A stretch of 63,980 bases of DNA, filler included, from Hausera hauseri (lineage: Eukaryota), in NCBI GenBank assembly GCA_046269625.1. It is 11 parts of 11 records of this genome, joined end to end, with 100 filler letters (N's around TTAATTAATTAA, not from the genome) between each part and the next. Parts side by side here need not be neighbours in the genome. Positions count along the whole stretch, not along the records: positions 1 to 5,988 come from JBJURY010157756.1; 10 more parts are not named here. One strand, 5' to 3'. Position numbers and translations under genes: made by a program. Below, in pieces: positions 1 through 40,472 of the stretch (position 1 is its first letter; every line of letters begins with the position of its first letter). A model generated the notes under the pieces. It saw nothing but the letters and a program-made list of their open reading frames with translations. It did not search any database and was not told where the DNA came from.

Positions 1-14
1 ATCGCGCCATGTAG

Positions 15-532
15 ATGGTGATGGACGACACCCGCTTTCAAGCAAAATTGGAATCGTTACTTGGCGCTAACCACTATCAAAGAGTAACTTCAGAAATATT
101 ATATGAGATTTGGGGAAAATTTTTAATTTTCGGACAAGCCGCATCTGGATTTCTAGCTATCTACCTTTTAGTCCAATTAGTAAAAGCAGTAATCCAAGCC
201 ATCATAAACGGATATGAAATATTCACATTAACAGGGTTTTCCTGTAAAATTTTGACTGCAATTACCACACCATTTGGAAAAATGACGTGGAACGCCACGT
301 CGGGTACTATAACCGCAAACGACGAGGGAGGCCCTCGATTCTGTACAAACGCAAAAACAAGAAAATAATAACTCGGAAAGATGATTCAGATGATGACGAG
401 CCTAAGGGAGGAGAAAAGAGTTCTAGAAGTAAGATGCACAAGATGTATTCAGTGACAAACGCGCCAATACCCAACATGCCACCAACTGCGCCAATATATG
501 AGAACTGTGACCAGAAAGAAGTTATATCTTAA
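15..532 (+). pseudogene. C-terminus (membrane-proximal, TM, cytoplasmic tail) of a chuvirus-like class III fusion glycoprotein, frameshifted near 285
   Basis: IWGKFLIFGQAASGFLAIYLLVQLVKAVIQAIINGYEIFTLTGFSCKILTAI fits the W..FL.FG..SAG..GI..I...IK..I...I.GY......G[WF]S..LL.A pattern I recall for chuviral-type glycoproteins; a basic tail with PPTAP follows in the next frame. Confidence 0.7.
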
Positions 533-848
533 ATGTCCGACATCTACAGCAAACCCGTTAACTATGAAGACCCTTATGAAAAAACGAAACAATATGTAGT
601 AGTACGGAAAATGAATGTCGCCAAACAAGGACTAACAGAAAACGATCACGAGATATTGTACTTGAAAAGGATACCCCGTAAGTCAGTAATCTGGGCGAAT
701 CCGAAAATACTTTCGATCCCAGGTCTGCTACCTCGAGAATCGCTCATCAACCGTCGTGTCCACAAAATAGCGGATAATAATTTATACCAAAATAAAGAAT
801 TGAGACAACTAAGGGAAAATATCATTTCATCACCGGCAATAACGATAA

Positions 849-1260
849 ATGGACACAGTCTCTACTGTAAAACAGTCAACATCAAATTGTTATGAAGCAG
901 TAGTAGAGGGAAGACCCTTCGCTAAAATATACATTGAAGACTGGGAAGTATACGCCTTAATCGACACAGGATCAGAAAAGTCGTTTGTAAAATACGAATC
1001 AATACCAATCACGCTACGCAATCAACTATGCCCACCATTATCATCAGACCCTGGCAGCATAGGAGCACTTGGGCAAGTATCGAAGCCAAAATTTAAATAG
1101 ACGCCCACCGTTTATATGATGGGCCAAGCACTTCAACACGAATCTGCAATAATGGACCAATTAACAGACGATGTAGTACTGGGTTGTGACATATTAAAAC
1201 AGATACCAGGCATGGCAATTGATGTGCATAACGAGAAATAAATTGATCTTGAACTAATTA
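849..1260 (+). pseudogene. Retropepsin (aspartic protease) of Gypsy copy 1
   Basis: GRPFAKIYIEDWEVYALIDTGSEKSFV, then past a stop ...DVVLGCDIL. Confidence 0.85.
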
Positions 1261-1530
1261 AAGGAACAAAAATAATGAAAGAAAAGAAATCGGGCGAAGT
1301 ATGAATTCCAGTAGACGAGGATATTCCGCGCAGAACTGAAATGATAATTTTTGCGCAGATTCGTTAAGATGAAGATCTACCGGTATATTTCGAACCTCAA
1401 GAAAATATTGATCCAAACTTCATGCTTATTAATACTTTATGCAGAGTAGTGACGGGACGAATACCTATTAATTAGTGAACAATGCGCCAACTCCAGTGAA
1501 ACTGCACGCTGTCACTACTTTAGGTCACAC

Positions 1531-2630
1531 TTGCATAGTGTCGGCAATAACAATAGAAAACAACCATACAAGTGCACAGAATTCCAACCTCACGTCAAAA
1601 CCACATTTTTTCCTAAGGCTTATTGCAAGTTCTATGAATTATTATGCACATACAGTTCAATAATTGCACAAAACGAGGAAAACATAGGTAGAGCAAAAGC
1701 CCTGAAACTAACAATTCCAATAAGAAAGAAACTTGGCTCGAACGACAAAATGGATCTAGAAAAACAGAAAATGCCAAAGTGGTATTCACCTCCTCATTCA
1801 TTGAGGCCAGAGATAAATAAAGAGGTAGAGCGAATGTTAAAGGCCGATATAATTCGACCAAGCTACCGAACATGGTACTCACCTATAATAATTGCTAAAA
1901 AGAAGGGAACTACGAAACATAGATTTTGTATCGATTACAGGGCATTAAAAACGCTAACGATGAAAGACTCGTTCCCCCTACCGTTATTAAAGGAAGCTTT
2001 AGATAGATCATCGGGAGCAAAATGGTTTACAACTCTCGAATTACAATCGGGATACTGGCAAGTAGAAATTGAAGAAAAATATCGATATAAAACAGCATTT
2101 AAAACACACGATCGTGTATACAAATTTAATTTTATGCCTTTTGGCATCACCAGAGGACCAGCTATTTTTACCAGAATTATGAACAAGATGCTTATGGGAC
2201 TTGATCATGCATTCGCGTACTTAGAAAACGTAATGATAGCATCAAAAACAGAAGACGAACACTTAAAGGATATTGAAGATACAATCATGCGACTAGATCA
2301 AGCAGGATTAAAACTAAATCCAAAGAAATGTAAATTGGCACAGAACGCAGTATCATACCTCAGACATATAGTCGGAGAAGGAGGATTTAAACCAGATAAA
2401 TCATTGCTAAATAAAATATCTGATTGTATGGAACCGCAGAACCAAAAAGACTTAAAACACTGGTTGGGCCTATGTGGGTATTATGCCACTTACGTACCGG
2501 ATAATTCGAAAATTAACGCACCACTTTATCGACTACACTAAAAAGGAATTAAGTGGAGATGGACGGAAGTGGAGCAAAAAGCCTTCGACGAAATGAAGAA
2601 AATCTTTACAAGTGAACCCGTTCTGAAGAA
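1531..2630 (+). pseudogene. Reverse transcriptase of Gypsy copy 1 (RNase H apparently deleted after about 2625)
   Basis: WYSPIIIAKKK..HRFCIDYRAL..DSFPLP..SGYWQ..MPFG..AYLENVMI..WLGLCGYY; the paralog on contig 4 keeps an RNase H that is missing here. Confidence 0.92.
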
Positions 2631-2829
2631 ATTACCACAGTAAAAAGGCCGCAACTCAAACAACTGGTTGAACGACAAAGAACTCTAATATTGGACAAGA
2701 CGATTAGAATTGCATTTGAACAAGCTAAAGACAAGGTTATTTAGCAAATTATAGAGTTTGTACAAAACGATAAAATACCAAAGGGACGACAACTCAAGAA
2801 ACACCTACAGAAACACGGGCATAAATAGC

Positions 2830-3890
2830 GCACATCAAACCAAGATAACATCCTATATTACGAACAAAAAGAAAAAGGCTAATAGTTATTCCGAAAGTAG
2901 TACGAATCAAAGTACTCATGGCCGAACACGACTCATATTTAGCTGGACACATGTCCTGGAAAAAGACATTAGAAACAATATTTAATAAATAATATTGGCC
3001 AAGCATTTATATCGATATAAAAAAGTGGATAAGTGTTTGCTAAGTTTGCGTAACAAAGCAAAAGAAAACAAAAGGCTACGTAGCAGAATTAAGGCCCATA
3101 AATGTACCAGACAGGCCCATGCAAGCTATGCCCATGGATATAGCAGGATCCTTGGCTAAAACTTACAAAAATAACAGATATATTCTAACATGCGTGGATC
3201 AATTAACGCACTTCGTCGAACTGGTGGCACTATTAGATCAGAAGACGCGGTGGTAAGGAAAATTATCCGCAGATACGGACCACCAGAGCAAATCTTAACG
3301 GATAGATGAAGGAACTTCACGAGTGAATTATTCGAAAAAACAACCAAGATATTTGAAATCGAGCGTTTAACCACTACGAATGAACGCAACAGTCATTCGT
3401 ATACTATCAACAGTAGTAGCAAAGGATCAAAAGGATTTGGATGAATTCCTAGAAGGGAGACAGTTTGTGATCAATACGACCCCACATCCAGCAACAGGAT
3501 TCACCATTCTTTATGATGTATGGACGAGAAGCAATTTTACCTACGGATTTGGGTATGACACCATATAAAAAGAACCTCAAGGATCTGGAGCAAAACTTTG
3601 CTGAAATCTTACAGACAAGGTTGCAAAAGTGTTGTGAAGTTGCAAAAACATTATCACTCAAATACCAGGAACAATTTAAAAAACAATATGATAAAAAGGC
3701 TAAACTTTATGATCTAAAAAAAGGTAATTAAGTTTATATCCACTATCCAGTCGCGAAGAAAGGCACATCCTTGAAATTAACTCGTAACGGAAGAGGATGA
3801 CATGAAATCGACCGCACAACGCCAACCACGGTCTATATTAACAAAAACGGTAAAGATGAAGCCGTGTCAATCCAAAGAATAGTTTAGACA
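2830..3890 (+). pseudogene. Integrase of Gypsy copy 1
   Basis: EHDSYLAGHMSW..KYYWPS..C..C zinc finger, MDIAG, YGPPEQILTD, MMYGREAILPTD; multiple stops and frameshifts. Confidence 0.88.
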
Positions 3891-3959
3891 GATATAAGAC
3901 CAGCCAAACGCTACAATTTAAGACAGAGAGAAGCCAAGACATCGACAGTTGTCACCAGA

Positions 3960-5381
3960 CCGGTATCTTACGCACAGATAATAGTAGCCTTATCGCTGAC
4001 TGCTGTTTTAACACCCAAGTCTAACGCCCAATGGTGGGTCGACGAAACTTCGTTGAGCAATATATATGGAATCCGGAAAACCGGAGTAAAACCTTTGCCA
4101 CCAAAGGAGGGAACTTCAGAACACAAAGCAGAACAAAAAGACGGAAAATTTTTACTAGCAATAAAATTACATTATTTTTTACCAGAAACCCCATATGTCG
4201 GGTTTAGGATACCTGAACCATATGAAGGGCAAATCCAGATACTATTCCAGGACCTATTAAACCAAGCCAAGTCTGAATGTAAATTCGAATCAGGAGACGA
4301 TACAATTTGCTGCAAAGTAGAATACGGATACTCTTACGTTCTTAGATATCGTTCATATCTGTTGAACTGCAATGAAATACGCGCCGAAATAAAATTCAAT
4401 TCACATCTAGTTATACCACAAACTTATGGAGACTACCTTAATATAGAGTTAGAAGATATGCTCCAGTCCATTGACCCATTAAAACGGATGGTAGAGGAAA
4501 ATATAGCTAGTATAACAGAAAACCAAAAGTATAGCTATATCCAAATAAACATAAAGGGGCGGCTAAATAAAGGAGAAGTAATCACGATTCAATTCATAAA
4601 AGAGGACAAATCAGGTGATAGCCAACAATACTGTCAAATTGACGCAGAAAGATCAAATAAGTGTTGCAAGTTACATCAAAAACATAAATATAGACTTAGA
4701 CTAGATTTGTATAAAGTTCGACCAAGCCAGCCAAGTATCTTCTTATGACGTTACCAATTGGAAAATCTAATCCAAGAAGCTCTGCCTCAAATAACGACCA
4801 GTAGAATTACGAATACAAAATTAAATGTGACTATTTCAACTTCCACCAAACTCCTCCAGGGAAGTAGATTACCTAAGAAGAATCTAGAAATGATTCCTAT
4901 AAAATATTGGACACTACAACATGAAATATCGTTCATTGTGGAAGAAGCACTTAATTAAGACGTAGAAATAAGCTGCCAAACATTACACAATAATCAGAAA
5001 GTGACATTGGCTAATGGAAGCTATCGAATCAAATGTACCGGTTTGAAACAGAAAACGGACTACATAATACAAATGAGTGCAAAGAACAAACAAAGTAGAA
5101 CGTTTACGGTACGGACCCTAAACGAGCTTGTCTTAACGAAACCCTTAATTAACGAGAAAACGAAAGACAAAATTATGACTAACGTTAAAACGAAAAATTT
5201 AACTAAATGGACAACTTTGCCATTAATATCGATTATTGGAACGTCAACATTTGCTCTCATAACTTTGATTGCGTTTTGTCGATTGATTACCAAAAACGGT
5301 TTTAATATGCGTCATAAAATCACCGAGAGGGAATTAAGAGTAATGGTACCACAGGATGAAATCAATGATGGGGTAACCTGA
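3960..5381 (+). pseudogene. Type I membrane protein (internal signal peptide, about 3 FN3-like repeats, TM, short tail), in frame with the integrase C-terminus
   Basis: ORFs at 3513, 4053, 4758 and 5001 share one frame, broken only by point stops; SP-like YAQIIVALSLTAVLTPKSNA|QW; FN3-like CTGLKQKTDYIIQMSAKN; TM LPLISIIGTSTFALITLIAFCRL. Confidence 0.75.
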
Positions 5382-5480
5382 CAATTACAGGTCGGGTTAT
5401 TCCACCATCTAACAAAGAATTGGTTCAAATTTAGAACAATACTTTGTTATAAGATTAGCCCTTACTTTTTGTTTTTCAGA

Positions 5481-5988
5481 ATGGTAAGTTTGGATAGCCG
5501 ACTTAGCATCGACGAATATTTACGGAAACAGGCCACAGTATTCATCCCAAATTCCAAATCTATCTACAGACGCATAAACGATGCATTACAAGCAAAAACT
5601 TAATCGAAATTACAAAAGTCAGCGAAATTCCAAATGAGCTAAAAGGCATTACAGAGGAGAACCGAGCAGTTTACCTATACGCAATGCGTGAAGACAATCA
5701 AGCCAAAGCTTTATTCCCTAAAAGAATTGATCCGAAACCGACCAGCTAAAATACAGGATATATATATCCACGTAGCCGATGGAAAAATATATTATAGGAT
5801 AGAAAACCAAACTTGGAACTCAAATGAAGTGCATCAATATCGGTTCAGTACATTCAAAATAAGCGAAAGAGGACTAGAACCTATTAACTACGGCCTTGAC
5901 TTTCGAGTAGCATCCCTTCCTGTCAAACTTATGTTCGAAGTGACCTAAAAAGAGAACTGCAACCTAGGCTTGCCAGTTCTAAAGTTTG
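5481..5988 (+). pseudogene. Accessory ORF (N-terminal part), homologous to 20989-21437 and 18278-19399
   Basis: SIDEYLRKQATVF..SIYRRI..KVSEIPNELKGITEENRAVYLYAMR..DIYIHVADGKIYYR aligns by eye with the contig 4 ORF; frameshifted. Confidence 0.7.
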
Positions 5989-9725: not shown

Positions 9726-12700
9726 GTGAAAATTGTTTTTCTTCCTATTCCACAGAGACAAAGACACACTTGTGGCATCTGCGATAGAGTCTTCACACTT
9801 GTTCATAACCTTAGACGTCATAATGACTCTGCACTGGGAAATAAAAACATACATGCAATATGCGCGGCAGAATATTTACCAGAAGTGTCAGCCTGTTGGT
9901 CCACGTACAAGGGGATCATTGTTACTCGCTAAAGAGGCCTGCTCCCTCCTATTTCAAGCGACACTGGCTACTGCTCCTTCCCAAGATAAAATACTGAGAT
10001 CTGCTCCTTCGAATAAGGGGGCTGCGCTAACTGGAAAAAAAACATAAACTGAACGAGGACCGGGTTGGTCCTTCCAAGAAAAAACAAAAAAAAAGCATCG
10101 GAATATGATTCGTTAATTGATTTACCCAATGATGTGAGAAACAGATATGATGACAATGAGGCATCTATAAAAACACACAGTATCATTGGCAAATACATTT
10201 CCACATATACTTATTTCCACAGACTAGACACTGAACACCGTTTGGACTGGAATTGTCTTTTAGACAACATATTTAATTGTCAGACACGTGGTTTAAAATT
10301 AACTACAGCCATCATTTCATTCGTAGGCACATCGAGACAGGGGATCTTAGATTTTATCATGCATTATATCAAACAATGCAGCAGTCTTAGAAACACCTAA
10401 ACATATCAAGAAACGGGCAGACTTTGTAGATTTCATTAAACATTTAGAGCCACAAGATCCAGTTAGCTTTGCATTACACAACAGGTCTAACACCAAATAC
10501 ACAATAGAAGCCATTCCTCCATATAATTTTTATATTTACCATTTAAAAGGATACCCGATTGGATGCACTCTAGACGAAATAACTGAACTCTTTACAAACA
10601 ACAAATCCATTTTTACACTAAAACACGACTCGTATACCACACTATATACAGATAATCTATGCTTCATTTGTTCTTTGGCAGTTTTTAGGGGTAGTGCCAT
10701 TAAAAACTTCAGTAAGTCGACACAACTCCTCAAGCATTGGTATGACTACCAGAGTCTCCAGCTCCTGGATAGTTTCCCCCGGAATTAGTTGAATAGATAT
10801 TCCCGATTTAGAAGAGTGTTTCCAGATAAATAAATATATATTTGAATTTGATGAGTACTTATACTTAAACTCGGAGGTAGCGGCGAATATACTCTGTTTA
10901 TTAGCGTATAGGAACCATTTTATGTATATTTCAAATATTGACCAAGCAGTACATGCTTTTTCGTGTAGCAAATGCAGCAAGCTTTTGCCCGTCCGCTGTA
11001 ATTTTATGAGACTCGAAAAGACATGTAATGGAGGCAACTCTGTCGATGTCTTTAAGGGTGGTGTTTACAGCCCACTCGAGACTATTTGTGAAGAAATCGA
11101 CCTGCTTGGAATATCAGTTGACACTAAGTTTATTTACTCATATCGAGCAAGATTTGATTTCAGACATATTCCCAAAAGACAAAGTTGGCTCCTGAGGCCA
11201 GTTCGACGACATTTGTCGCAAAGCACGTACCGTTATCGTGCTCTAGAGCTTCTAATGTGCATGGAATGACGGATTCCGTTTGCTTCGATTAAAACGGGAA
11301 TCATCGAGCCTTGGTTAATGACATAGTCGCCAATCTCCAAGAAATTTCGGAGATGGCTTATAGACTTTTAAAAAATCATTTGAGGACGTGCTTAACGTCT
11401 TGGGCAAGATAGAAGACAGAGCCCTCCTAGGTACGCTGATGCGTTTTTTGTACCAGCTCCCGGTCATAGGCATTAACTCGAGAAAACTTGACATTAACGT
11501 AATTAAACCATATCTCATAAGTGCACTCGCCACTCAAGGCGTGAATGGGGAAGCCGCTCAAGGAGGCAGCAATGGAGAAGAAAGTTTCCAAGAGAAGAAC
11601 CGAGCTGGAGCTGCCCAGGCTTCCGCCAAGCCTCATAATTTTATAGTTAAGTGTAACAATAACTTTATGTGCCTTTCTACACTAAAGTTGAAATTTTTAG
11701 ATATTTGTAATTTTCTGGCGCCGGGTTTTAGCTATAGCAGGTATTTAGCTGCGTGCAAGATAGAGGAAAGAAAGGGATATTTTTGTTATGAATATATTGA
11801 TGATTTAGCTAAATTAAATGAAACTAGTCTACCTCCCCACTCAGTGTTTTTCTTGTCCCTTAAGAATAAAATTTCAGATTCCAAATACTCATTTTTTCAG
11901 CACGCTTGGGGAGGAAACCACATGAAAACCCTTTAAGATTTTCACATTTGGTACAACTATAAGGATTAGTGCCCTTTTCAGATGCGTTAGAAAAACGATT
12001 GAATTTTATTCTAAGTTAGGATTCATATTTTCCGCAACGCGATTTCGGTCCCTGTCGTAACATTAAAGTATCTTTTTTAAAAATAAACCCACGGATGCAG
12101 CTTTTTATTTATATTAAAAGCGCGGGAAAGAAATCCATAAAGTGATTAGAGATAATATAGTGGGCAGGCCTCAAACGTATTCCATAGGTACCACGAAAAG
12201 GATGAGACGTGTATTAGGGGGAATACGTTAGTTCTGGAGATTAAAGGGTACGATGCTAAAGGCTATATTTATGGGCTTTAACGCAAGACATACCGACAGA
12301 TTTTGCTATATTTAGGAAGAGGGAAGACGGGTTTAAAGATGCATAAAGTTAATTATTATACAAGACAGTGTCGCCAGTGGTTAGCGTGGGTAGAACACAA
12401 GAATAAAATTACTTTAAAAACTGAATATAACGGTAGGGAAATGGCTTTAGGTTCCTTGTATAAAAGAGTAGATGGGTGGGATAAAAATTCGCGGAGTGCA
12501 TATCAATTTCATGGTTGTTATTTTCACGGACATTCGAATTGTCCCACCACCCGCTGTAAGGTGATTAATCCCGTCAGTAAGATACTGTTGGACAAGTTGT
12601 ATAAGAAACCTCTGACCATTCACGAGTGAATAGCTAAATATGCTAAAGTCGTGATGATGTGGGAATGTGAGAGGAAAGCTCTGAAAAAGTCAAATACATC

Positions 12701-13979
12701 AATAAAAGCTTTTCTGAGCACCATACCTTTTGTGGCGCGATCCACCTTCTAACGGCTACCGACAAAGACGAGAATTCTGAAAGCTGTAAAGGCCAAAAAG
12801 TGGCTTGGTCGAGTGTGAATTACACGTTCCCGAAAAATTGAAGGAGCATTTTTTTGAAATGACTCCAGTATTTAAAATCGTCGAAGTCTCTGGAGCCGAC
12901 ATAGGGGACTTTATGCGTAAATAGGCAATACAGAACAAACTCTTGACGAGTCCCCGTCCTACGCTGGTAAACAGTTACAAAGACGAAAAGATTCTTCTGA
13001 CCTCCTCATTATAAAGGTGGTACATGAACCACGGTCCACAAGTCACAAATGTGTACCGGGTCATCGAGTTTGGTGACAGCGCCGCAAATGCTCGGCGCCA
13101 GGGAGATACGCAATTTCGAATGAGACGCTAAAATTCTTGGGGAATGCTTATGGTACAATTCTTACCAATATAGCCAAACACTCTGATGTGTCTTATTGTA
13201 AGGGTGATGACACTGCCGATGCGGTTAATAGCCCCCTATTTAAAAAGATAACAGAAATTAGTAAGAATCTTTTTGAAGTACAAATGCATAAGGAAAAAAT
13301 AGTTTGGAATCTCCCGTTGCAGATAGGTTTTTTCGTATATCAATATGCAAAGTTAAGAATGTTATAATATTATTATGCTTTTATAGATAAATATGTAGAT
13401 AGGTCCGATTTTCAGCTATGTGAAATGGATACAGATAGTTTGTATTTGGCCCTTAGTAAGTGTGACCTAGCCGATGCAGTCAGAACCACAAATTAGAGAA
13501 GAATTTTGTAGCGTGTACGACATGTGGTTTCCTGCGGAAGTCTGTACCGCGCATAGGTCCATATTTGTTGGGTAAGGCGGGGGTAGATTGTCTGGCCTGT
13601 AGAAATAGGAAAGCATTCGATAATATAACTCCGGCCCTCTTCAAATTAAAATATGCAGGCGAAGGAATGATATTCCCTTGTAGTAAAACCTACCATTGCT
13701 TTGGGAGTTACAACAAAACCATTACAAAAGGCATAACAAAACAACACAGTTACAACAAAACCAGTATAAAAGGCATAACAAAACAACACAACACACTAGA
13801 CAAAGACAAATTCTTATCAGTTTTAGAGAAACAACAACCACAGGCAGGGACAAACACGGGGTTCAAACTACACAAATCCGCAGTATACACTTAAACACAA
13901 CTTAGGAACTCATTATCTTACTCTTATATCAAAAGACAGGTCCAGTCCGAAAAATTCACACCAAAACCACTCGACATTT

Positions 13980-15545: not shown

Positions 15546-15751
15546 TAATCAATAATCGTAAGAACAAAACGAATCGCTGGAGGTGCTCAAGATTCATCCA
15601 TGTCACTGGATGGAATATACGAAATCAAGTGTTATGTATTCNNNNNNNNNNNNNNNNNNNNNNNNNNNNNNNNNNNNNNNNNNNNTTAATTAATTAANNN
15701 NNNNNNNNNNNNNNNNNNNNNNNNNNNNNNNNNNNNNNNNNTAAATATATT

Positions 15752-16480
15752 TTGGTATTTATTGATTATTTCACCAGATGGGTGGTGGCTTTACCAATGC
15801 CTGATATAAGGGCTGACACAATTGCTGAAAGATTTGTGGAAAATATAGTATTCAATTACGGAGCTCCAAGAATTCTGACAGGGACTGTAATGCAGTCCAT
15901 ATATGATATATTGAAAATATTAAAGTTACGGTCAACGCCCGCACATCCAAAGAATAATGGAATGGTTGAAAGGTATATTGGAGACCTAAAAGGTAAATTA
16001 CAAACAGTAGTAAATACTAGGCAGGATGACTGGGACGAATACATCAATGCATGTGTTTTCGTCAATCGGACATCAGTCCATGAGGCGACTAAAGAAACAC
16101 CCTTTTATATAATGTATTTGCGAGATGCAAGACTACCAATCGATTTAGATTTCAACGTAAAAACAATTTCACACTTAATGGAAATAGAAGACTATAAACA
16201 AGTAATGCAAGAACACCTCCAGTTGGCATACAAAATGATTGGTGATAACCAGAAAGATTATAAATTAAAATATAAGAAATACTATGACCAAAAGACGAAG
16301 CAGCCTAGAATCAAGATAGGCGACCAGGTGATGTTGCATTCTCCAACAATTAAAAAGGGTAAAACGTCTAAATTAGACAGACCATAAAAAGGACCATATG
16401 AGGTAGAAAAAATAGACCTACCGAATATTTGCCTAAAGAAAAATAATACTTCCGTAAAAGTACATATTAACAGATGTAAG
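15752..16480 (+). pseudogene. Gypsy integrase core + GPY/F C-terminus
   Basis: FIDYFTRW, YGAPRIL, HPKNNGMVER, ETPFYIMYLRD, KLDRP*KGPY..VHINRCK. Confidence 0.92.
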
Positions 16481-16579
16481 CCTGCTGCTAAGGAGAGTAA
16501 GTTAAGAGAAGGTAAAAAAGAGTTAGTAAACAGCATCAGTGAGAAGGAAATCGAAAAGGACTCAACGAATAAACTGCCT

Positions 16580-17965
16580 ATAAAGAAGATATTATTACTA
16601 GGCATCATTCTATTACTTCCCATAGTAGTAGGACAAATGTCGGATCAAAAAGTTCAAAAAGCCAAAATACGACATGCTACAGCCATAAACGAGGATCTAT
16701 GGTTAAAAATCTTAAAGTATCACATAACATATTCCATGCAAGGTCAAAAATGCATTACCTGGTATACTACGAGACAAATACCTGGTGATTATATCATAGA
16801 GATACAAATAACCCCAGTCAACGGTCACGAAAGAAACTCTGATGAGAGATATAATAGTTGCACCCTACGTTCAGTGACTAATAAAACGCAATGTCCAATA
16901 GACACTTCAGGGACACATAGGGTATACCTAACGCTTATAAAAAAGAAAGGAGGTTATTATTATAGTTTACATACTAAATTTTACAGGTATATACGAGTTC
17001 CCAATAGACAGGGAATGAATGAAACACTGCTTGATGAAATAATACTCGCTCAGAAAAAAATAAGATCAATAGAATTTAAAAGTGGACGAAGTTGTCTCGA
17101 AATAAGAAGTATGATAGAATTAGAATATATTCGATGGATAACGATATCCATAAAAGAAATAGGAGGCAAACAAAGATTATTGAAATGTGAATTAACCGAT
17201 GAACAGCAACAAGTTTGCTGCAACGTAACAAGAGGTAAAATATGCGAAGTAAAATATACTTTGTCACGAAAGGAACACGGAAAGCTCAAGAATAGAAGAC
17301 AGAAAAGGTCCGACAATGTTTATACGATATAACAATCAAAATGAGTATGATGATATACGAAGAAGAATCACGGTACCACCTGTGCAAGTCTCGCCTGATA
17401 CCAAGGAGATGACTATTCTAATTAAACCATATGCTTCTTATTACCGCCAAAAACGTTCTATCTGGGATAACGTAACTATTATAGCACTCCCACGGCACTA
17501 ATCATCTCTCTTAGACCAGATCTCGACTTCATAAAAATTAAATTTGTCTGTAAAAGACAAGACACCACAGTAGCAAAAGGAATAATAACTCCTGATGATC
17601 TGATAGTGCTGTGTGCGGCTTTAGAGACTAATACGAAATATACAATTATGTTACAATTATTAGACGTTAACGATAAAATAACCTCTACAAAAGTAATGTC
17701 TCCAATCACAAAAGGTACTAGAATCGAATCACCATACAGATTAAATACAATCATGAATAAGACAACTAAAAAGCCATTACGAGCAGGATATAAGTATTCC
17801 CGCCTAGAAATAATCATAATAGGTTCAATAACCCCTGTGGTCTTAATAATAATATTGTTAATAGTGAGTAAAATCTTATATTGGCGATACAAACGAAGAA
17901 GAAGCTGGGTCAGAATTGATATGCGAAATCTAGCGAATCCGTTAGATACGGACAACCCCAGCTGA
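16580..17965 (+). pseudogene. Type I membrane protein with signal peptide, FN3-like repeats, two RQKR furin-type sites and TM; starts in frame with integrase
   Basis: KKILLLGIILLLPIVVG|Q in the integrase frame; CCNVTRGKICEVKY; CAALETNTKYTIML; TM IIIIGSITPVVLIIILLIVSKILYW then RYKRRR; internal frameshifts near 17320-17500. Confidence 0.75.
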
Positions 17966-18277
17966 CGATTAATGTTGAGGATTGCAATATACGCAACCCT
18001 CAGTAAAGAGATAACCAAACAACATCGAGTTATCTTATACGTTAAAAATAGTTATAACGAAACCACAATGATTACCTCCCTCAGTTGTTTGATAACCGTT
18101 GTGTTGTATTTAAGTATCGTGATAAATGACGTTTTGACTCTTATTTTTACAGTCTCAGCTACAACGTTCCACTAGATCCAGTCTATTACTCATTCCAAAC
18201 ACTGGTACGGTAACGTAAAGAACCATATAATTAACGCCAATCCGTCCAATCAATACTACGTATCACACAATGATAAT

Positions 18278-19399
18278 GTGACCAGTTTAAACTACCCTCA
18301 GATTCAACAAATCCTTAACAATATAAAAGGATATAGTATGGCTAACCGATCTTTCGCCATAATGCAAATTACTAAAGCCACATCATTTCTCCTAGAGGAT
18401 ATAATAATCCTACCAGATCGATTCCATTCTATGAATTTGTACGGCGTTGTGGGTCAAATTCAGATAAAAACAACAGACAAAAAAACATCAATTAAAGGAG
18501 ATCTAATCTATGTCGATCCTGAACACGGTCTAGCTTTCGATTACACCTTCCTTAAAGACAATCTAATTAAAATTTGTTCGTGCACAAACCGGGTAATATT
18601 AGCAATGAAAATAATTAAACTAAAAAAATTCTTTCCCAGTCTGCCAGAAGGAAGATGCTTCAATCTCCCGGAGCCTGACTACGTCAAGTACAAAAGTATC
18701 CCTTATAGAAGATTGGACAAAGTTACAGATAAAGACATGGTCATAGCCGCCGTAAACTTGGCCTATGACCAATGGAACCAGCTTCAACCTATCGAAGCCT
18801 CGGTTCTAACAATGAATGGAGACACCTTGCTGTATGGAACCATTACCCCAAGGCAGCGTATTAACAATTTCGATACGCACATAACCGGCCTCACAGAGTC
18901 TAATATCAATAACCAAATCGATCCAGTGGATTTTTACCGAAAAGTGACAGAAGCAATAACTGACAAGGATGTTATCGGAGCCAACGTGGTTGAAATTGTT
19001 ACCAACCATTTCAAGTGTCCAATCCGACGGATAGCTGGAGTACGTGATATATTATATCACGAGGATGTTATCCGCCGGTATCAGTTAACAACTAAGACTT
19101 ATAAAGAATTGGCCCGCAAATTCTATTACACAAAGGGCTTTTCTCTACGAATCACTGCCTTAGCGCAGTGCTACCAATCTATCTACAAACAATTAAAGTG
19201 GTCAGATGAGCTCATCAACCAAAGCACGGCCTCCGATACGGTGCGAACAGCACCCACGACATCGCAATGTGGAAGGAAACGTAGAATTCAACTTGATGAA
19301 ACAGTCGTACTGGATGATAAAGTATACAAGCCCGAAGCCATCCGATATAAATCAACAACAGGAAAATATATCCATATGCCCTTGTCGTTCGACCAGTGA
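18278..19399 (+). CDS. Accessory protein: unknown N-terminal domain + degenerate DEDDh (ISG20/REX4-like) exonuclease domain; frame extends upstream to 17966 with one TAG at 18173
   Basis: Long open frame; ASVLTMNGDTLLYGTITPRQRINNFDTHITGLTESNI..KVTEAITDKDVIGANV..VRDI resembles the REX4/ISG20 core but lacks ExoI DxE and GH..D. Confidence 0.65.
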   Translation: MTSLNYPQIQQILNNIKGYSMANRSFAIMQITKATSFLLEDIIILPDRFHSMNLYGVVGQIQIKTTDKKTSIKGDLIYVDPEHGLAFDYTFLKDNLIKICSCTNRVILAMKIIKLKKFFPSLPEGRCFNLPEPDYVKYKSIPYRRLDKVTDKDMVIAAVNLAYDQWNQLQPIEASVLTMNGDTLLYGTITPRQRINNFDTHITGLTESNINNQIDPVDFYRKVTEAITDKDVIGANVVEIVTNHFKCPIRRIAGVRDILYHEDVIRRYQLTTKTYKELARKFYYTKGFSLRITALAQCYQSIYKQLKWSDELINQSTASDTVRTAPTTSQCGRKRRIQLDETVVLDDKVYKPEAIRYKSTTGKYIHMPLSFDQ

Positions 19400-20988: not shown

Positions 20989-21437
20989 GCGGCAATCCTC
21001 AATTCCATTTCATTTTCGCATAAGCTTTTACGACACAACTTGAAGGTACTGAACTTGTATTTTCGTCCCTTGTTTGAGCTCCAGTTTTTTCCAACTAATC
21101 TGTAGTAAACCTCTCCTTCAGCCAAATGTACATACACATCGCATTGAGGTCTTATTTCGGATTTCAGTAATTTTTTTAAGTTGTATGATCGGGCATCTTC
21201 GTTGTTTCTCATGGCGTATAATAGCAGAACTCTATTTCCTTCCACGATTCCTTTCAAATTGTTAGGGATTTTGTCTACTTGATTATATTCCACTAGTGTT
21301 CTATTCTGCAGTTCTATGTGGACTTGACGATATATAGCGTTGGAATTATGTGTTATTATAGTCGCACTTTCCTGTAAGAATTCGTCGATGTCGGTCTGGT
21401 CACAGCATTTATTTCGATTTGCCATCTTACTTACCAA
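20989..21437 (-). CDS. Accessory ORF (partial; runs off contig end)
   Basis: Open frame, same frame as the upstream membrane protein; homologous to 5481-5988 and to the start of 18278-19399 (Y.Q...I.NN.KG....NR). Confidence 0.7.
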
Positions 21438-21536
21438 TCTGAAATAAAAGTAAATAAGTTTATTCCTAGGACAGAGTCGTATTTCAGAATGAAATATTTT
21501 TACTGTCTGATGACAGAATAACCCGACCTGTAATTG

Positions 21537-22910
21537 TCAGGTTATTTTATCATACGAATCACTTTGGTGTACCACCCTTATTTCTCCGTCATTAATTTTG
21601 CGCTGTTTTTTACAGTTTTTGGTAATTATATAAAATGGCGCCATTAATATTAATAAGACGAACACTGACATCACAATGATTAATAAAATAGGTAGAGTTG
21701 TTAATACGAATGGTTTTTGTGTTGTTGTAGTGGTAATTGTATTTTCTATGTCTCGATTTCTTTGCGAATCTGGGTAAATATTTTCCGTTAAAGTGTGTAA
21801 GGTGATTGTCCGATTTTGTTTTCCCGCTGCGTTAATTTGTATTATATACTCTATCTGAGATTTCAGTGATTTACATTCAGTCTGTTGCGTATTCTTTATA
21901 AGTATTACATTTTGTCTACTATATAAGGTTCGATAGTTTATCTCTATATCGTAGTTTAATTCTTCCTCGACGAAGAATATTACCTTGTTTCGCTGCAATA
22001 AGTATTTAATAGGAATACCTTCCGGTTGCTTTCTGGGTCTTTCACTAGTCATGATGATTTTAGTAGCAATACTAGACTTTGTCGTCGTTTCAAATGGGAT
22101 TTTTCAATTTGTCTTCCTAAACGATATCCTCTTAGGTATATATTTGGCTAATTTGGTCTGACCTTATATAGTAGAACTGTATCTCGTAACTGTATCCTTG
22201 GGTATTTTACAGCACGGTTTTGAGTTCCACTGGCTGATAGCGCAGTATTTTGCTGGCGGATTTGTTTCTTCAGACGGTATGAATCAAACCGATATCTGAT
22301 AGGATTTAGTTAAACTTGTTCTAGTTTTAATTTGAATACATGCATTTTTTAAATCCTTGGAGACTTCAACTATATTTTCATTTAATAACTTAATTTGAGG
22401 ATCAGTACTTTGAACTATGTCGGATAATTTTACTCTGTCCATTAGGACTTGCTTGGGCATAGCTATTTCGATCAGTGGTCGTATCTCTGCTCGAATGATC
22501 TCATAGGGGTAATAATACATAAGTATTACATATCTGTATGTTTGTCCGAAATCTAGTTAACAACATTTTTTATAAACTCCATATCCAAACTAACAATCTT
22601 TTATCCTTTCACTATTTCGATCGGTAAACTTTATACGAATTTTCATATATTCTCTTGTAGCCTTGTCGGTTTGAAACCAGATAAAGGGCTTTTTCTAACC
22701 TGCATCATATGCTTTCATTGTTTTTATATTTTCCTTCCAGGTGTTTTTGTTCCTCTTTGATTTTGGCTTCCCTTCCCTTTTGGCAATTGCATATATATAT
22801 CTACTAAACTGGATTCGCTTTCATCCCACTACTACGCTTTAGTCTTAGGAACATAAGAAGCGATTAATGATAGTGTTAAGATTATCTGTACGTAAGATAT
22901 TGGCCTATAA
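21537..22910 (-). pseudogene. Signal peptide / FN3-like / TM membrane protein, counterpart of 3960-5381
   Basis: RPISYVQIILTLSLIASYVPKTKA; IPIKY..FFVEEELNYDIEI; CKSLKSQIEYIIQINAAG; TTLPILLIIVMSVFVLLILMAPF. Confidence 0.75.
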
Positions 22911-22999
22911 ATTATACAAGATGTCCTTGTTTTTTTCTTTCCTTCACTTGGGTTAAAACTCTGATTTTTGTATCGCAAATTATAACGTCTTCCCTGTCG

Positions 23000-24130
23000 T
23001 ATTCCTGTTTTAACAACTCTGCATGGATACTACCGCTTCTTTGCCATTTTTATTAATGTAAACAGTGATTGGTGTGGTTCGAAAAAGTTCGTAGGGCCCT
23101 CGTCCGGTACGAGTAAGTTTTAACGATGTACCTTTCTTTTGATTGGATAGTGCACATAGATCCAGTTTCCTTCTCCTAAATCATGAGGTTTGGCCTTCTT
23201 ATCATACTGTTACTTAAACTGCTCTTGATACTCGAGAGTGAGCTTCTTAGCTATATCCCAACATCTTTGTAATCTCGTTTTTAGAACTTCTGCGAAGTTC
23301 GGCTCTAAATCTTCTGGATTAATGTGATACGGAGTCATTCCTAAGTCCGTAGGTAATACTGCTTCACGTCCATACATCATAAAAAATGGTGTAAATCCTG
23401 TGACGGGATGTGGGGTTATACTGATATCAAATTGCGTTCCTTCTAAGAATTTGTCCCAATCTTTTGATCCTTTGCGACTACCGTCGACAAGACTCGCAGA
23501 ACTGTTGCATTCATAATTTCGATCATTCCGTTGCACTGAGGGTGATATGAAGTAGTGGTCAAGCGTTCGATCTCAAAGATCTTGGAAATTTTATTAAATA
23601 ACTCACTCGTAAAATTTCTTCCTCTATCGATTAATATTTGATCAGGGGGTCCGTATCTACAGAAAACTTTTCTTACCACTGCATCTGCTAAAGTTTCTGC
23701 CTTCTGATCGATTAGTGTTATTAGTTCAACGAAGTGAGTTAAGCGATCCACACACGTTAGAATATATTTGATATTTTTGTGAGTCGTAGGTAAGGGTCCT
23801 ACTATATCCATAGACATAGCGTGCTTAGGCTTGTCTGGTATATTGATTGGTTTTAGTTCTGCTATATAATTTTTCGCCTTCTTTTGTTTTGTCGCACAGA
23901 CTTCACAAGCGTCCACCCAGTTTTTCACGTCAATATAAATACTTGGCCAGTAATACTTATTCAATATTCTTTTTAATGTTTTCTTCCATGACATATGTAC
24001 AGCTAAATGTGAATCATGTTCGGCCATTTATACTTCTGTTCGTAATCCCTTTGGAATAACTACTAGTTTCCGTCCCTTTCGTTCGTAATATAAAATATTG
24101 TCTTGATTCGATGCATAGTATTTATGCCCG
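23000..24130 (-). pseudogene. Gypsy integrase
   Basis: HDSHLAVH..YYWP..CEVC; MDIVGPLP; CVDRLTHF; DRGRNFTS; YHPQCNG; TGFTPFFMMYGRE. Confidence 0.92.
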
Positions 24131-24329
24131 TGTATTTGTATATGTTTCTTTAGCTGGCGTCATTTTGGTATTTCATCTCGCTCGGAAAATTTGATTACTT
24201 TTTTAATAACTTTATCTCTAGCTTGTTCTGCAGAAAATTTGATTGTTTTATTCAGCGTTAAGGTCCGTTGTCGTTCTATTAATTCTTCGAGTTGTGCCTT
24301 CTTCATAGTCGTAATCGTAATTGTCTTTG

Positions 24330-25274
24330 TCTTAAGTCTTGTTAACGCATCTGCGTCGATGTGTTTATTTCTGGGTTTATATTGAAATTCCATATTGTAT
24401 CGGGAGATTTTCTTGATCCATCAAGTTAGTCTACATGTCAGGTTACCGTCCCGTCCTTTTAACGTTGTAAGAGCCTTGTGATCGGTAACTACGCTAATTT
24501 TCTGTCCGTAGAAATAGACATTAAAATGCCTTTAAGCTTCTTTCACGGCTAATGTCCTCCATATGCGATTGGATGTTCCAATTCTTCATCGTCGCGTTTC
24601 TGAGCCAATTCACAGCCAATTCCTTCTTTACTTGCGTATGTTTTAATTATAAACGGTAAATTAAAATCAGGATATCTTAGCACTGATTCATTGGTTAAAA
24701 TTTTCTTCATTTCATCGAACGCCCTTTGTTCGATATCGGTCCATCTCCACTTGATTCCCTTTTTCAATAAACGATATAATGGTGCGTTTATTTTCGATTT
24801 GTCTGCCACATAAGTGGCGGAGTATCCACATAAGCCTAACCAATGTCTTATTTCCTTCTGATTTTGGGGCTCCATACAATCTGATATTTTGCTCAATAAG
24901 GATTTATCTGGTTTCGATCCTCCTTCTCCGACTATATGCCCTAGATAAGATACAGCTTTCTGTGCCCATTTACATTTCCTGGGATTTAGTTTCAATTCTG
25001 CCTGTTCTAACCTCATAAGAGTATTTTCGATGTCTTTTAGGTGTTCTTCTGTTTTCGATGCCATCACTACATTGTCTTAGTAGGCGAACGCGTGATCGAG
25101 ACCCATTAACATTTTATTCATCATTCTGGTGAAGATAGCTGGGCCGGTTGTTATACCGAACGTATTATGTTAAATTCGTAAACTGCGTCGTGCGTTTTAT
25201 ATTCTGTTTTATAACAATCGTTTCCTTCAATTTCTACTTGCCAGTATCCGAATTGTAAATCCAGCGTGGTAAAC
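24330..25274 (-). pseudogene. RT (C-terminal half) and RNase H
   Basis: LKLNPRKC..VSYLGHIV..WLGLCGY..LRYPDFNLPFIIKTYAS..HPIAY..VTDHKAL..ADALTR. Confidence 0.9.
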
Positions 25275-36083: not shown

Positions 36084-37832
36084 GGCACACGTGCAAAATC
36101 GATTTATCCATTCCCCTCCCCTTCCGGGGTGGGACAGAAAGCACATTTTCCCCCTACTTATAAAATAGTTGGAAACGTTAAATGTAGTTTAATGGTACAT
36201 AATAATTAATATATAGTAACAAAGAATTGTATGTATGAGAAACAATTGCAAAAAGGAGATATAAAAAGATAATTAAACCAAACAGTCGGTCTACACAGAA
36301 TTATATATGGAACGAAATAAGAGAAGACTACGTAGATTCGAAGAAATTGTGGTTGAAATTGCGAAAGACTTGTTCCTTCATTAACTGTTTCATTGATTTG
36401 TTGATATTCCGTGTCGTGTAATCAGCAACTGGTAAAATTTTATTTATTAAAAATTGTATTACTCGCTAATTTTCTACATAGTTTTTAACCGCTCCTTAAG
36501 AGTGGTTTGACGTCCACTAAGTGTTAAATCAGAGCAAAATATATAGATAAAACTAGAGTCTGATTAAACTCGCACGCAATTACCAGCACCACTGTTTATA
36601 ATATCATCATAAGTAAGGCACAATCTGTCTATCCGAGAACGGTAGAGCTTACCTGTAAGAAATATTAAATTCAAGTGTAACTACTGCTATATAGTGGGAG
36701 AGCGCGTAAGGGCCACCACAATATATAACAAGATCATTTTAATTTTTCCGTAACCTAGTAATTGGTCGGACCACACCTGTCCGGCTATAACAATCGGGTA
36801 TGCTGCCAAGTCAAGTCTGAATCGAACATTTATTTCCCTTTGTTTTGTACAACAACAACAACAATTAAATCGTTTTTAATGAATGTTAGGAGTACACAAA
36901 CCACATGGGTTAACCAATTCCGTAGGAGATTGAGAGAGTCCATCGGAATTAGTTACATTGCAATGTTGCTTGAAACAAATCCGATCTGCTGACTGCCAAA
37001 GTGGAATGTAATCACCTTTGACAAAATCTTTCACGAGCCGTATTTGACATGGATTGCCATCCAACGCATAGTAATCCGCCAATTTCCGATAGGTGCGAAA
37101 CAAGTGACCGAATATTATATCCATGTCAACAAGAACTTGCTTCATATGTCGTAGATAAGGTTCTCGTGACCTCTAATTCTCCTCAGCACGCCGGAGTACC
37201 TGTTCGGGAGAATAGTATCGTGCATCATGTAAAGGTCGATCAAGAGTGTAAAAGTGATTCCGGAGACCGTCGAACAAGTGATATAAATGAATGAGTTCTG
37301 TTAAATGGGATATGCCATAATGTCATACCGTAAAGAAGCGCATGTATTTATACTGAAATGTAACAACAGCAAAGACACGTGAAATAAATTGTATTGATTC
37401 AAGAAAACAAACATAGCAAAATAATACATATTTGTGATTATATACGGTCAATCAACATTTTCATTACAATACAAAACGAAGCAGAAAATACAAGTACAAT
37501 GAAAAAATTAATCCGTCGTTGTTGTTGTCGTTTTCGTCTCATTTCATCTTTGATACGTTGTATGAACATAGATCTTACTAGTAACTTAATATACTCTCGC
37601 CTGCTCATTATTCTAGTTTCTGTGAGCTCACATAAAAACTGTACATCAAACACATGTCCTGTCAAAATACAGTAATGGGAATAAGTTGTGGTGTATTGTA
37701 ATTAAATTTATTTATTTATAATTAATACATTTTCATTTATTTTTAGTTTAACATTTACTTTAATTTGTTTATCATTCACAAATGTTTGCAATATCCTATA
37801 TATTGCGTAACTCGCATACATGAGGGTGGACA

Positions 37833-40472
37833 GTGCCACAAGGAAATGGCCGAATATTATTTAGTGGCAAGGACACGTACCTATGTCCCGTGTGTTTTAT
37901 TCAAAACACATGCCCGTACACCGAATTTTATGAGATACACAAGCACCATCTCGGTCCGTTCACGCGGTCCAAGAAGATGATGGTTGTGCATTGCCCCACA
38001 TACCCGCAATATTGTAGTTGTAGTAAAGTGCATGACGTTGATGGTTTCCATAGTGTAATGGAGCAGTACTATGGCGCCACAAAGGTGCATGGTAAACGGG
38101 CCAACGTTTCTCCCGGTTGTTCTATAGTTGATGAAATCAACTATGAACAATTCTGCAACATTCACAAGGACAACTTTAACCAGTTTCAGCAGTCCAAAAA
38201 GGAAATAGTTATGGCGCCAAGAAAAACCAGTATCCTCCCAACAAGCAGGAAACATCAATCATCCACAAGTCTTGACGAATACGTCCGAAACAGCACCGAT
38301 CATCATCATCAGCAGCAGAAGCAGATGCTACAGCAGGAGTCTTCCATTACTGTCAAGTACGATCTAAACAAATCGTATGTGGACGTGAAATTAAACATGT
38401 CGGGTTCAATAACACTACAACTGAAACACGTTCCGTCCAGCGTGCGCAACCAATTGGAATTAGAAATGGAAAAATTCAAACGCAACAACATCAAGGTGCA
38501 ATATCATGCACTTGCACAATTTGAAAACTTTGAAGGTGACTGGAAACAATGGTATGTGTCACATCGAGCCGCACCGTATTCAGAAGATTTTATTGTCGAT
38601 GTAGGCGAAAAGTTGGATGAGGAAATCGCCAACTACACGGAAAAGGGTAGTAAATGGCGAATTATACGAATTGTTACACTCGGCTTTATCGTAATAAAAT
38701 CGAGTGACGCGGTATATTTGTCTGGACGGTCATTCATACCGACACCTGCATCTCTAAGGCATTTGCTGGTGGTAGTAAATGTACAAAATACTGACGATGA
38801 CGACGAATACTATTTTCTGTACAGTATTTCGGCTGTATTGAAGTACAACGAAGTGAACTGATATCATGCAAATCATCCAAATCAGCATCGGCAGTATTTT
38901 TTCGAATTGCAATTTGATGAATGCTAGATGCCGATAGAACTGAAAACTTTTTCGGCTTTTGAACGGCGTAATTCGACGCTGTCAATTAACGTTTACCGGT
39001 ACAACACAATAGTTTAAATACCGGAAGACGAAGAAATTTATAAGAACCCCCATGTAGACATAATTTATCGCAGTCGGAACCCGAATGGACGCTCGGTAAA
39101 TTTGTTGTTTTTGGAGCAGGCTGAAAAATTTCATTACGTGTCAGTGACAAATCTGGATAAACTGTTGAACATGGAGCATGACCAGTTAATTAAAAAGTGA
39201 ATACGATGCAAATAGTTTCCTGTATCTCTGCATGGATTCAGATCGGAAACAACGTAAGAGAAATATGTCACGCTATGCAGACAAAACGCATCAAAGACAA
39301 CAGTGTACGTCATGCCCGTCAAAAAGGAACTCAGATTCAGTGATTGGTCTAAAACGGACAGTCCGGCATATGTTCCCTATGCCGATATCGAAACAGTTCT
39401 ACCACCACACAATGTATACTATCAAAAGCACGTTCAAATAGCCGTCGGCATGTTACTAGTACCAATAAAAGCCGCCGGACAAGCACAGTATTACGTTTTC
39501 CATGGTTGGAACTGTGTGCGTGATTTCCTGCAGCAGTTGGAAACCATAGTGGAAACGGAAATGGCGCCGTGGTATCGCAACAATTGCAATAAGCCATTGA
39601 TTGTGGCAGACGAATAACAACCGTTGCTTTTCACTGTCACCGATGAATGTTATCTGTGCCACAAAATAATACAGTTTGATGCACAGGAACGGCTCGTATA
39701 GGATTACGACCATTTCACCGGTCGATACTTGGAAGTAGCATGTAATTCATGCAATTTAGCAAGGCGGGTGCGACCATTCTTGCCGGTGATTTTTCATAAT
39801 TTCCGAGGTTATGAGTGTCACTATATTCTCAAATGGGTCATTAACGGCTTTTGGCACTAAAAGCTGTCAATAATCCCATTGACAATGGAGAAATACTTGT
39901 ATCTGCCGGCACGCATAAACCGATTCCAGGTACGCTTCCTTGATTCATTGCAATTTCTTAATGAATCATTGGCAAAGCTGGCAAATGTGTTGCCAAATGT
40001 GCCGATAGCACTGACACAGTTCCCTGCACATATTGTACGCAGCAAAGGCGTATTTCAGTAACTTTGCAACATCGCATGAGCGACTCCGGACAGCAGAGAA
40101 ATTACCGCCGCTATGGACAGGTATTACAGAAAATGAATATCGGAGAGCACAAGAATTTTGGACAGAACTGGACTGTAGAAACATGTTGGATTACATGCTC
40201 CAGTATTTTAAACTGGACGTGTACTTATTAGCCGACGTGTTTCAAGCATTTCGGACCAAAGCGCTAAAAGAAGATAGGTTGGAACCACTCAACTTTTATT
40301 CCATACCGGGAATGAGTTGGGCGTCGGCTCTAATGTCACTGGATCGAGACATTGAGCTGCAAAAAGATCCGGAAATGTACCGGCTGTTTGATGTCGGTAT
40401 TCGCGGCGGCATGACATTTGTCAACAAACATCAGGTCAGTGCTACCGCCGATACCACATCACTGCTGTATAT
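37833..40472 (+). pseudogene. Polinton pPolB (N-terminal/exonuclease half) with an endonuclease VII/HNH insertion
   Basis: YTEKGSKWRI; VNVQNTDD; PYADIET; CYLC..DHFTGRY..ACNSCN..VIFHNFRGY; RFLDSLQFL; LDVYLLADVF; YSIPGMSW; GIRGG. Confidence 0.88.

Follow-up and report, generated by a model that had tools for sequence, protein, structure and literature searches.

A Decayed Gypsy Element of Hausera hauseri Whose Polyprotein Very Probably Carries a gB-Type Envelope and a Second, FN3-Bearing Membrane Protein

The DNA described here very probably contains a decayed, very high-copy Ty3/Gypsy retrotransposon, related to Burro and the GAG-ENV-POL elements, whose polyprotein carries a gB-type envelope protein (env) and, in addition, a second membrane protein with fibronectin type III (FN3) modules. 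In intact relatives, the order is Gag, signal peptide, Env, transmembrane (TM) helix, linker, protease(s), dUTPase-like region, reverse transcriptase (RT), RNase H (RH), integrase (IN), signal peptide, FN3, stalk, TM helix and tail; accessory ORFs follow the polyprotein. The same order is present in the DNA studied, from the env TM helix through the second TM helix.

The Window and Its Elements

The window, i.e., the whole stretch of 64 kb that was analysed, is made of 11 short contigs joined by N-linkers. Contigs 1-10 are AT-rich, transposon-filled, animal-like DNA, and contig 11 has a bacterial composition (GC 0.60). Contig 1 (window 1-5988) finishes 40 nt past an accessory ORF and starts inside env, so that it shows neither gag nor the env ectodomain nor the 5' LTR. 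This copy is dead, as it bears stops, frameshifts, a degenerate RT motif and an RNase H deletion. The features considered are the following.

15-284 (+): membrane C-terminal region of a gB/chuvirus-type env (PF24664), frame 3, from Pfam and hydrophobicity
About 126-206 (+): TM helix of env, with a second hydrophobic/amphipathic segment at about 198-275
275-284 (+): break from frame 3 to frame 2, a short deletion relative to sister contigs
248-532 (+): cytosolic tail or first half of the linker, frame 2, with a basic patch (314-331), an acidic patch and a Pro-rich segment
482-493 (+): PTAP, candidate TSG101-binding late domain, within PPTAP 479-493 and followed by a Tyr motif at 494-505
533-895 (+): open stretch in frame 2, probable second half of the linker, with Tyr motifs at 542-604 and poor sister-contig cover at 601-800
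909-1250 (+): retropepsin protease (PR), stop-interrupted, triad at 963-971, RVP E 0.011
1250-1560 (+): probable dUTPase-like spacer between PR and RT, aligning weakly with the same region of relatives
1636-2632 (+): RT and connection (PF00078, E 2e-28), catalytic motif degenerate
2864-3950 (+): integrase, with H2C2 zinc finger, core and C-terminal part, many stops and frameshifts
3969-4028 (+): internal signal peptide in the same frame as the IN C-terminus
4029-5216 (+): ectodomain of Cys-marked FN3-like modules (about 4134-4400, 4497-4745 and 4911-5120) and stalk, two stops
5217-5381 (+): TM helix (5217-5276) and short cytosolic tail
5382-5948 (+): broken accessory ORF, shared with the contig-4 copy, weakly matching the N-terminus of the contig-3 exonuclease-like ORF
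20989-25274 (-): second copy of the same family in contig 4, RT to accessory ORF, 70-77% nucleotide identity, also with signal peptide, FN3 and TM
15742-19399 (+): remoter relative in contig 3, with integrase, signal peptide, FN3-like modules, TM, tail and exonuclease-like ORF

The order PR-RT-RH-IN is that of a Ty3/Gypsy-type pol. About 360 nt, comprising most of RNase H, are absent after 2632 in comparison with the contig-4 copy, in which RH is kept. The relatives described below carry the Gypsy-type Pfam families PF17917/17919/17921. Peptidase_A17 is a marker family of BEL/Pao elements; scans of the window ORFs and of the relatives yielded no BEL/Pao-typical Pfam family. Window 912-1469 aligns with positions 2121-2298 of relative P0144, i.e., the protease and the start of the spacer (E 1e-5), and Pfam gave no match for 1453-1800 in the spacer region. 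The dUTPase label is our assumption, taken from position and sequence pattern.

A DEDDh-type exonuclease ORF is located after the polyprotein at window 18176-19399 (+) and at 12085-13473 of a relative, L001. The L001 ORF matches RNase_T (E 0.0011) and is itself matched by the window ORF (E 7e-9), while the broken ORFs at 5382-5948 and 20989-21536 weakly match the exonuclease-like N-terminus (E 0.009 and 0.005, respectively).

Several other features were observed in the window. In contig 5 (30697-34881, +), RNB (DIS3-like) and Helicase_C fragments, possibly captured host genes, immediately precede a ubiquitin-like segment and a Gypsy gag-pol. A piggyBac-type transposase with one stop is found at 55057-56851 (+; PF13843, E 2e-74). 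Fragmented ORFs occur at 10053-12000 and 37824-40524; Pfam gave no relevant match on three pieces of them, and by eye we take them to resemble Polinton/adintovirus-type DNA polymerase B regions. Contig 2 starts with a direct repeat of about 200 nt and 90% identity (6089-6286/6523-6717). Judged by eye, the bacterial contig (58172-63980) holds one porin-like and one integrase-like ORF, and probably a pair of ParD/ParE type. No tRNA genes were found in the 64 kb window.

The Envelope Fragment and the Linker to the Protease

A reading made earlier from the sequence only had placed a glycoprotein-type membrane C-terminus at the beginning of contig 1, and the profile check against the chuvirus-type family bears this out. 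Residues 10-86 of the frame-3 ORF 15-368 match positions 518-594 of the 653 in the Monjiviricetes_fusion profile (PF24664, E 2e-15), with 56.2 bits against a curated cut-off of 27; relatives score 85-328 bits. The hydrophobic peak of the fragment is 2.2, at residues 46-64. Env is labelled a class III fusogen after the available text of PMC13524379, with its ectodomain lying outside the window.

The same reading had proposed a frameshift between the TM helix and a basic tail, and this, too, is real. Sister copies were collected by placing 13,050 contigs on contig 1 at 80% likeness or more (run X1). Four of the resulting rows that span the joint have extra letters at 275-284, the lengths of which bring frames 3 and 2 into register; a stop is present in one of the four. 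The frameshift is therefore due to a deletion in this copy, and the PTAP segment is the true continuation of env.

Moreover, the basic tail with PPTAP was said to lie about 400 bp ahead of a protease on the same strand. The distance was found to be about 420 bp, with the protease starting at ~909. The motif is a consensus PTAP downstream of the env TM helix, presumably on the cytosolic side. P[TS]AP is produced in 0.12% of shuffles of the tail 248-532, and all six frames of the 64 kb window contain only two such motifs. Five Tyr-based motifs are clustered around PTAP at 443-604 (+, frame 2); we assume a resemblance to SH2-binding or sorting motifs.

In the window copy, a stop at 530-532 and a shift of frame near 850-909 lie between env and pol. 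Frame 2 of 248-895 contains one internal stop in 215 codons, as compared to a shuffle mean of 13.6 stops per frame; one stop or fewer was reached in 2 of 5000 shuffles, which is a generous test, the boundaries having been chosen at stops. The stop that closes the frame-2 ORF 248-532 may be a lesion, and the env tail probably does not end at 532. Since env is in frame with the protease in relatives, a single linker is the more likely status of 248-895.

Relatives Carrying Env and Pol in One Chain

Among 1.84 billion representatives, phmmer found 120 matches to the env fragment, 115 of them env-like; a word-index protein search with the same fragment gave no match. The order in other copies had been named as a check, and it held: in eight of the ten best env-like matches, PF24664 is followed by a retropepsin within one ORF. 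Altogether, env runs into the protease in 12 of the 90 tails scored. The best env matches are the pol-fused ones, with E values of about 5e-10 for LTR-borne envs versus about 2e-5 for chuvirus G. On the env tree, the pol-fused clade has the window fragment as its sister (SH-aLRT 85, from 26% of columns).

Gag is found upstream of env in L001, P0012 and P0032. L001 was the sole locus from JGI metagenomes in a broader env alignment, which had no locus in viral or GTDB contigs. It is an intact ORF of 3,703 codons, in which a gag-like start, two CCHC knuckles, a weak ubiquitin match, a signal peptide, env and a TM helix are followed by two proteases, RT, RH, IN, another signal peptide, two FN3-like modules and a final TM helix. 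The polyproteins P0126 and P0122 fall, by size, in the 4,000-4,800-aa Burro class. A Bcl-2 match was seen in P0004 (E 1e-3) and a weak ubiquitin match in P0144 (E 0.018). Thus, the order (gag)-env-pol-FN3 proposed from the sequence is found in the relatives and, as far as it is in view, in the window; in intact relatives, however, env, pol and the FN3 protein belong to one polyprotein and do not form separate genes.

The window RT is 42-47% identical to that of these relatives and sits on a long branch, with its position unresolved in the RT tree. The locus scans with the window env and RT recovered, in viral and metagenome contigs, no close relative spanning env to pol, and the in-frame env-pol of the window family is, for this reason, inferred from the relatives at 42-47%.

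In summed contig depth, which is not copy number, run X1 covers positions 1-600 at 12-22k, the protease at 36k and RT at 32-44k; the depth is 328 at 601-800, in the middle of the env-protease linker, and 200-2,450 across the FN3 ectodomain of contig 1. The env end, PR and RT are similar in depth (12-44k), and env is therefore part of the multicopy family. No long direct repeats were found in contigs 1, 3 and 4 or in L001, nor any repeat or LTR between env and the protease.

Further observations concern the make-up of individual relatives. P0122, P0008, P0126 and P0012 contain two to six retropepsin domains, and in three relatives an extra protease separates IN from the second signal peptide. 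Ankyrin repeats, C2H2 fingers and an additional hydrophobic segment ahead of RT are present in P0122 (4,844 aa). An intact element of this kind, P0003 (HBK71150.1), is recorded as a hypothetical protein in a Flavobacteriaceae MAG and is evidently animal DNA binned into a bacterial genome.

The Second Membrane Protein

The expectation that one element would carry two membrane proteins was supported. In contig 1, frame 3 is unbroken by any frameshift from the IN C-terminus to the second TM helix, with the hydrophobic signal at 3969-4010, and the unit of signal peptide, FN3 and TM helix occurs in three elements of the window (contigs 1, 3 and 4). All six relatives that reach beyond IN (P0003, P0008, P0122, P0126, P0142 and P0144) carry a second membrane unit in frame, in which a hydrophobic signal segment is followed by one or two modules marked by Cys, then by a stalk, a TM helix and a short tail.

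An HMM was built from nine modules of the six relatives only and run on all six frames of the window. Its top three hits are the membrane-proximal modules of contigs 1, 3 and 4 (iE 1e-4, 4e-4 and 1e-3), with the next locus at 0.87. This ranking shows the window modules to be homologous to those of the relatives.

The fold was approached through an AF2 model of the L001 module (8-row alignment), which is a seven-stranded sandwich with pLDDT 84. The top Foldseek matches of this model are all FN3 domains (best E 6e-4). In a wide fold search, the best match was fibronectin with Z 10.0 (rmsd 3.2, 91 residues), and an Ig-like DUF3244 ties at 9.8. The model and the fold searches alike support an FN3 fold for the L001 module. 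For window 4029-4745, a single-sequence AF2 model reached pLDDT 39 and was not informative. In the ESM Atlas, the window segment was matched to FN3+TM proteins at 0.90-0.92 and L001 at 0.89, where the recognition scores (2298 and 1486) are at or below the threshold of 2300 and shared features number fewer than 170.

Pairwise BLAST showed no significant similarity between the second membrane proteins of different lineages, a search with the FN3 region of P0003 matched only P0003, and sequence searches of PDB yielded no significant match to the FN3 modules or to the env ectodomain of L001. The ectodomain of this protein diverges rapidly. Between P0144 and P0142, identity is 32% in the FN3 ectodomain as against 77% in env, 88% in RT and 87% in IN. 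Among 15 of the 20 members of the P0126 cluster, variable sites make up 5.1% of the FN3 ectodomain versus 0.6% of env, and the window copies are about 30% identical to each other in the FN3 ectodomain versus 82% in RT. Divergence faster than that of env suggests a host-contact role for the FN3 ectodomain; relaxed constraint can also produce such divergence.

In the literature searched, no paper joined a retrotransposon with fibronectin type III; other descriptions of Burro, or Repbase entries, may already include TM or FN3 annotation. This conserved and rapidly evolving membrane protein would be a new element of these polyproteins, putative in its function and possibly annotated before.

Late-Domain Motifs across the Glycoprotein Family

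Motif counts were based on 90 tails of at least 30 residues each. From the 120 phmmer matches, five false ones of WD40 type were removed (two by Pfam and three by match pattern), and a further 25 with tails of fewer than 30 residues were left out. P(T/S)AP occurs in 8 of the 90 tails versus 0.56 expected from a global shuffle. Local shuffles raise the expectation to 0.72-0.76 tails, and none of 500 attained eight; each of 11 anagram patterns of the motif is seen in zero to two of the tails. This amounts to an enrichment of about tenfold across the tails of the PF24664-type family, which are related to one another and hence not independent trials. YPxL is found in 15 of the 90 tails versus about 1.1 expected, and PPxY is not enriched in them (2 versus 1.4 expected).

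The position of PTAP within the tail varies between family members. The carriers of P(T/S)AP comprise 7 of the 78 unfused tails and 1 of the 12 pol-fused tails. Named chuvirus glycoproteins are among them: PTAP was observed in the cytoplasmic tails of two that have no protease, and the tails with P(T/S)AP or YPxL words include those of Fushun oxya chinensis chuvirus 1 and Wufeng shrew chuvirus 2. P0048 and P0068 are among the unfused PF24664 proteins concerned. The env-PR linkers of ten long polyproteins were scanned, and P(T/S)AP was present in none. Some of these linkers have PPxY or YPxL in its place, which could also be sorting signals or retropepsin cleavage sites.

For the earlier idea of a tail-borne late domain, the evidence is equivocal. 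It agrees with the enrichment across the family; the motif itself is not conserved among the pol-fused relatives, of which only one in 12 has it. Among the matches listed, there was no literature on late domains of chuvirus tails. The family-wide enrichment of P(T/S)AP and YPxL, as a pattern in sequences, appears to be new, and its bearing on budding is putative.

Comparison with Known Systems

Arkhipova & Yushenova (2019; PMC6431247) described Burro/GYPSM1, giant planarian Gypsy elements of more than 30 kb with an in-frame env between gag and pol, and the available text states that Burro polyproteins bear BCL2, BIR, MATH and Ubi domains. The elements described here resemble Burro, as far as that text goes, in an env homologous to mononegavirus-type fusion glycoproteins and placed in frame between gag and pol (in frame in 12 relatives here), in the probable dUTPase-like PR-RT region, in very high copy number, in the BCL2/Ubi domains of P0004 and P0144, and in polyproteins of 4,000-4,800 aa (P0126 and P0122). 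They differ in that the same text mentions neither fibronectin nor a second membrane protein downstream of IN, nor any late domain. The window lineage is also distant, its RT being 42-47% identical to that of the relatives.

Chary & Hayashi (eLife 2026; PMC13524379) reported GAG-ENV-POL elements of Gypsy type with a gB-type env in Nematoda, Bryozoa and Platyhelminthes, and their available text states that how most such elements choose target cells remains elusive. The Ty3/gypsy pol, the gB-type, Chuviridae-like env and its place ahead of pol are shared with these errantiviruses. By eye, the env motifs of the relatives match the Schmidtea 'Platyhelminthes_C1a' ENV rows in the available part of the supplement, in which the word YQES is found only in four such rows. 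On the other hand, the main text, so far as available, does not contain fibronectin, FN3, PTAP, late domain, ESCRT, polyprotein or in-frame, and describes no second membrane protein. Thus, the env-before-pol order is already published for planarian Burro and the GAG-ENV-POL errantiviruses in the available texts of PMC6431247 and PMC13524379.

Anakin (Dezordi 2020; PMC7642597), in its available description, is likewise an LTR element with a glycoprotein of the same family; unlike the present element, it has a BEL/Pao backbone and occurs in mosquitoes, whereas here the pol is Gypsy-type and env is in frame ahead of the protease. The likening of env to BEL/Pao Anakin and chuvirus G in the sequence-only reading needs correction: the element is Gypsy, and its env is closer to the LTR-borne envs of the planarian GAG-ENV-POL group than to chuvirus G. 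Chuviridae/Jingchuvirales G shares a homologous membrane-proximal region, and P(T/S)AP and YPxL are enriched in the tails; it differs as the free ORF of an RNA virus, and no N or L gene is present here. Troyka was rejected as a match, being without env.

Herpesvirus gB and paramyxovirus F act together with separate host-contact glycoproteins. The pairing of gB with its receptor-binding partners, or of F with HN/G, is similar to a fusogen accompanied by a separate host-contact glycoprotein, as an analogy only.

Proposed Mechanism and Alternative Explanations

In the proposed mechanism, the polyprotein would thread the ER membrane twice by means of two internal signal peptides and two anchors, such that both ectodomains would face the lumen, with Gag, Pol and the linker remaining in the cytosol. 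The parts would then be released by signal peptidase and by the retropepsin(s). Env would serve as a class III fusogen, and the FN3 protein as a rapidly diverging, host-facing surface protein. PTAP would be one of several interchangeable motifs and not a lineage-defining one.

Whether env belongs to the element at all was weighed against chance adjacency or nested insertion, in which a chuvirus EVE or the env of another element would have come to lie beside an env-less Gypsy. The contig does start inside env, and sister contigs are thin over the linker middle. Nevertheless, this is very unlikely, to the point of being scarcely credible, because the same order is found in single ORFs of 12 relatives, the fragment is placed with pol-fused envs in the tree and among the best matches, and env and protease are not separated by any repeat or LTR; env and pol are also similar in depth. 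The same evidence upholds the original claim of glycoprotein and pol in one Gypsy element. An env encoded as a separate ORF truly ending at 532, with pol expressed from the adjoining ATG, by splicing or by readthrough, has more to recommend it and is still improbable. It would suit the ATG at 533 immediately after the stop, the PTAP near the free tail end in 7 of 78 unfused relatives and the distance of the window lineage from the fused relatives. Yet one stop in 215 codons is in line with the frequency of lesions in another part of this copy (5 in 637 codons, frame 3, 3471-5381), and the linker of about 230 codons falls inside the range of 53-260 in fused relatives. The single env-protease linker is hence preferred.

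The functions assigned to PTAP and to the FN3 protein are less secure. That the window PTAP, in the cytosolic env tail or linker, recruits TSG101 as a working late domain of the window subfamily is rather unlikely. It is probably instead a Pro-rich linker word of one subfamily, any budding proceeding via Gag or other motifs. Retroviral proteases cut aromatic-Pro bonds, and the YPxL-like words of relatives would, in the same account, be Tyr-Pro cleavage sites of the retropepsin or YxxPhi sorting signals. The linker shows some of the lowest conservation (40%), which, along with the near-absence of P(T/S)AP from pol-fused tails (1/12) and long-polyprotein linkers (0/10), favours a non-functional PTAP; the excess of P(T/S)AP (8/90 tails versus 0.56-0.76 expected) and YPxL (15/90 versus about 1.1), at varied tail positions and including the two protease-less chuvirus glycoproteins, speaks against it. 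For the FN3 protein, an attachment or tropism factor on the particle is the most likely role, proposed tentatively. Somewhat less probable is a role off the particle, as a cell-surface decoy, in superinfection exclusion or in modulating host signalling. Such a role would be in keeping with the Tyr motifs of several tails, with the Bcl-2 match of P0004 and the weak ubiquitin match of P0144, and with the BCL2, BIR, MATH and Ubi domains of Burro (available text of PMC6431247); fast divergence suits either kind of arms race. Against it, the FN3 protein and env are in one chain, owing to which both would be in the same membrane and in the same amount, and herpesvirus gB requires partner glycoproteins for entry (PMC8262866, abstract). 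The broadest picture has two parts held jointly: enveloped particles would bear a gB-like fusogen and a diversifying FN3 attachment protein from one membrane-recrossing polyprotein, and PF24664 glycoproteins, chuviruses included, would drive ESCRT-dependent budding via P(T/S)AP/YPxL in their tails. The conjunction is a speculative proposal and, as a whole, decidedly unlikely.

Implications

For envelope-bearing retrotransposons, it is usually assumed that a single env suffices. A conserved second surface protein that outpaces the fusogen in its divergence is a pointer to a possible seat of host specificity and of the host-element arms race. The FN3 protein is a concrete candidate for the means by which these elements choose their target cells. 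In a similar manner, the late-domain words in chuvirus-type tails offer a testable budding route for a large and little-studied group of viruses.
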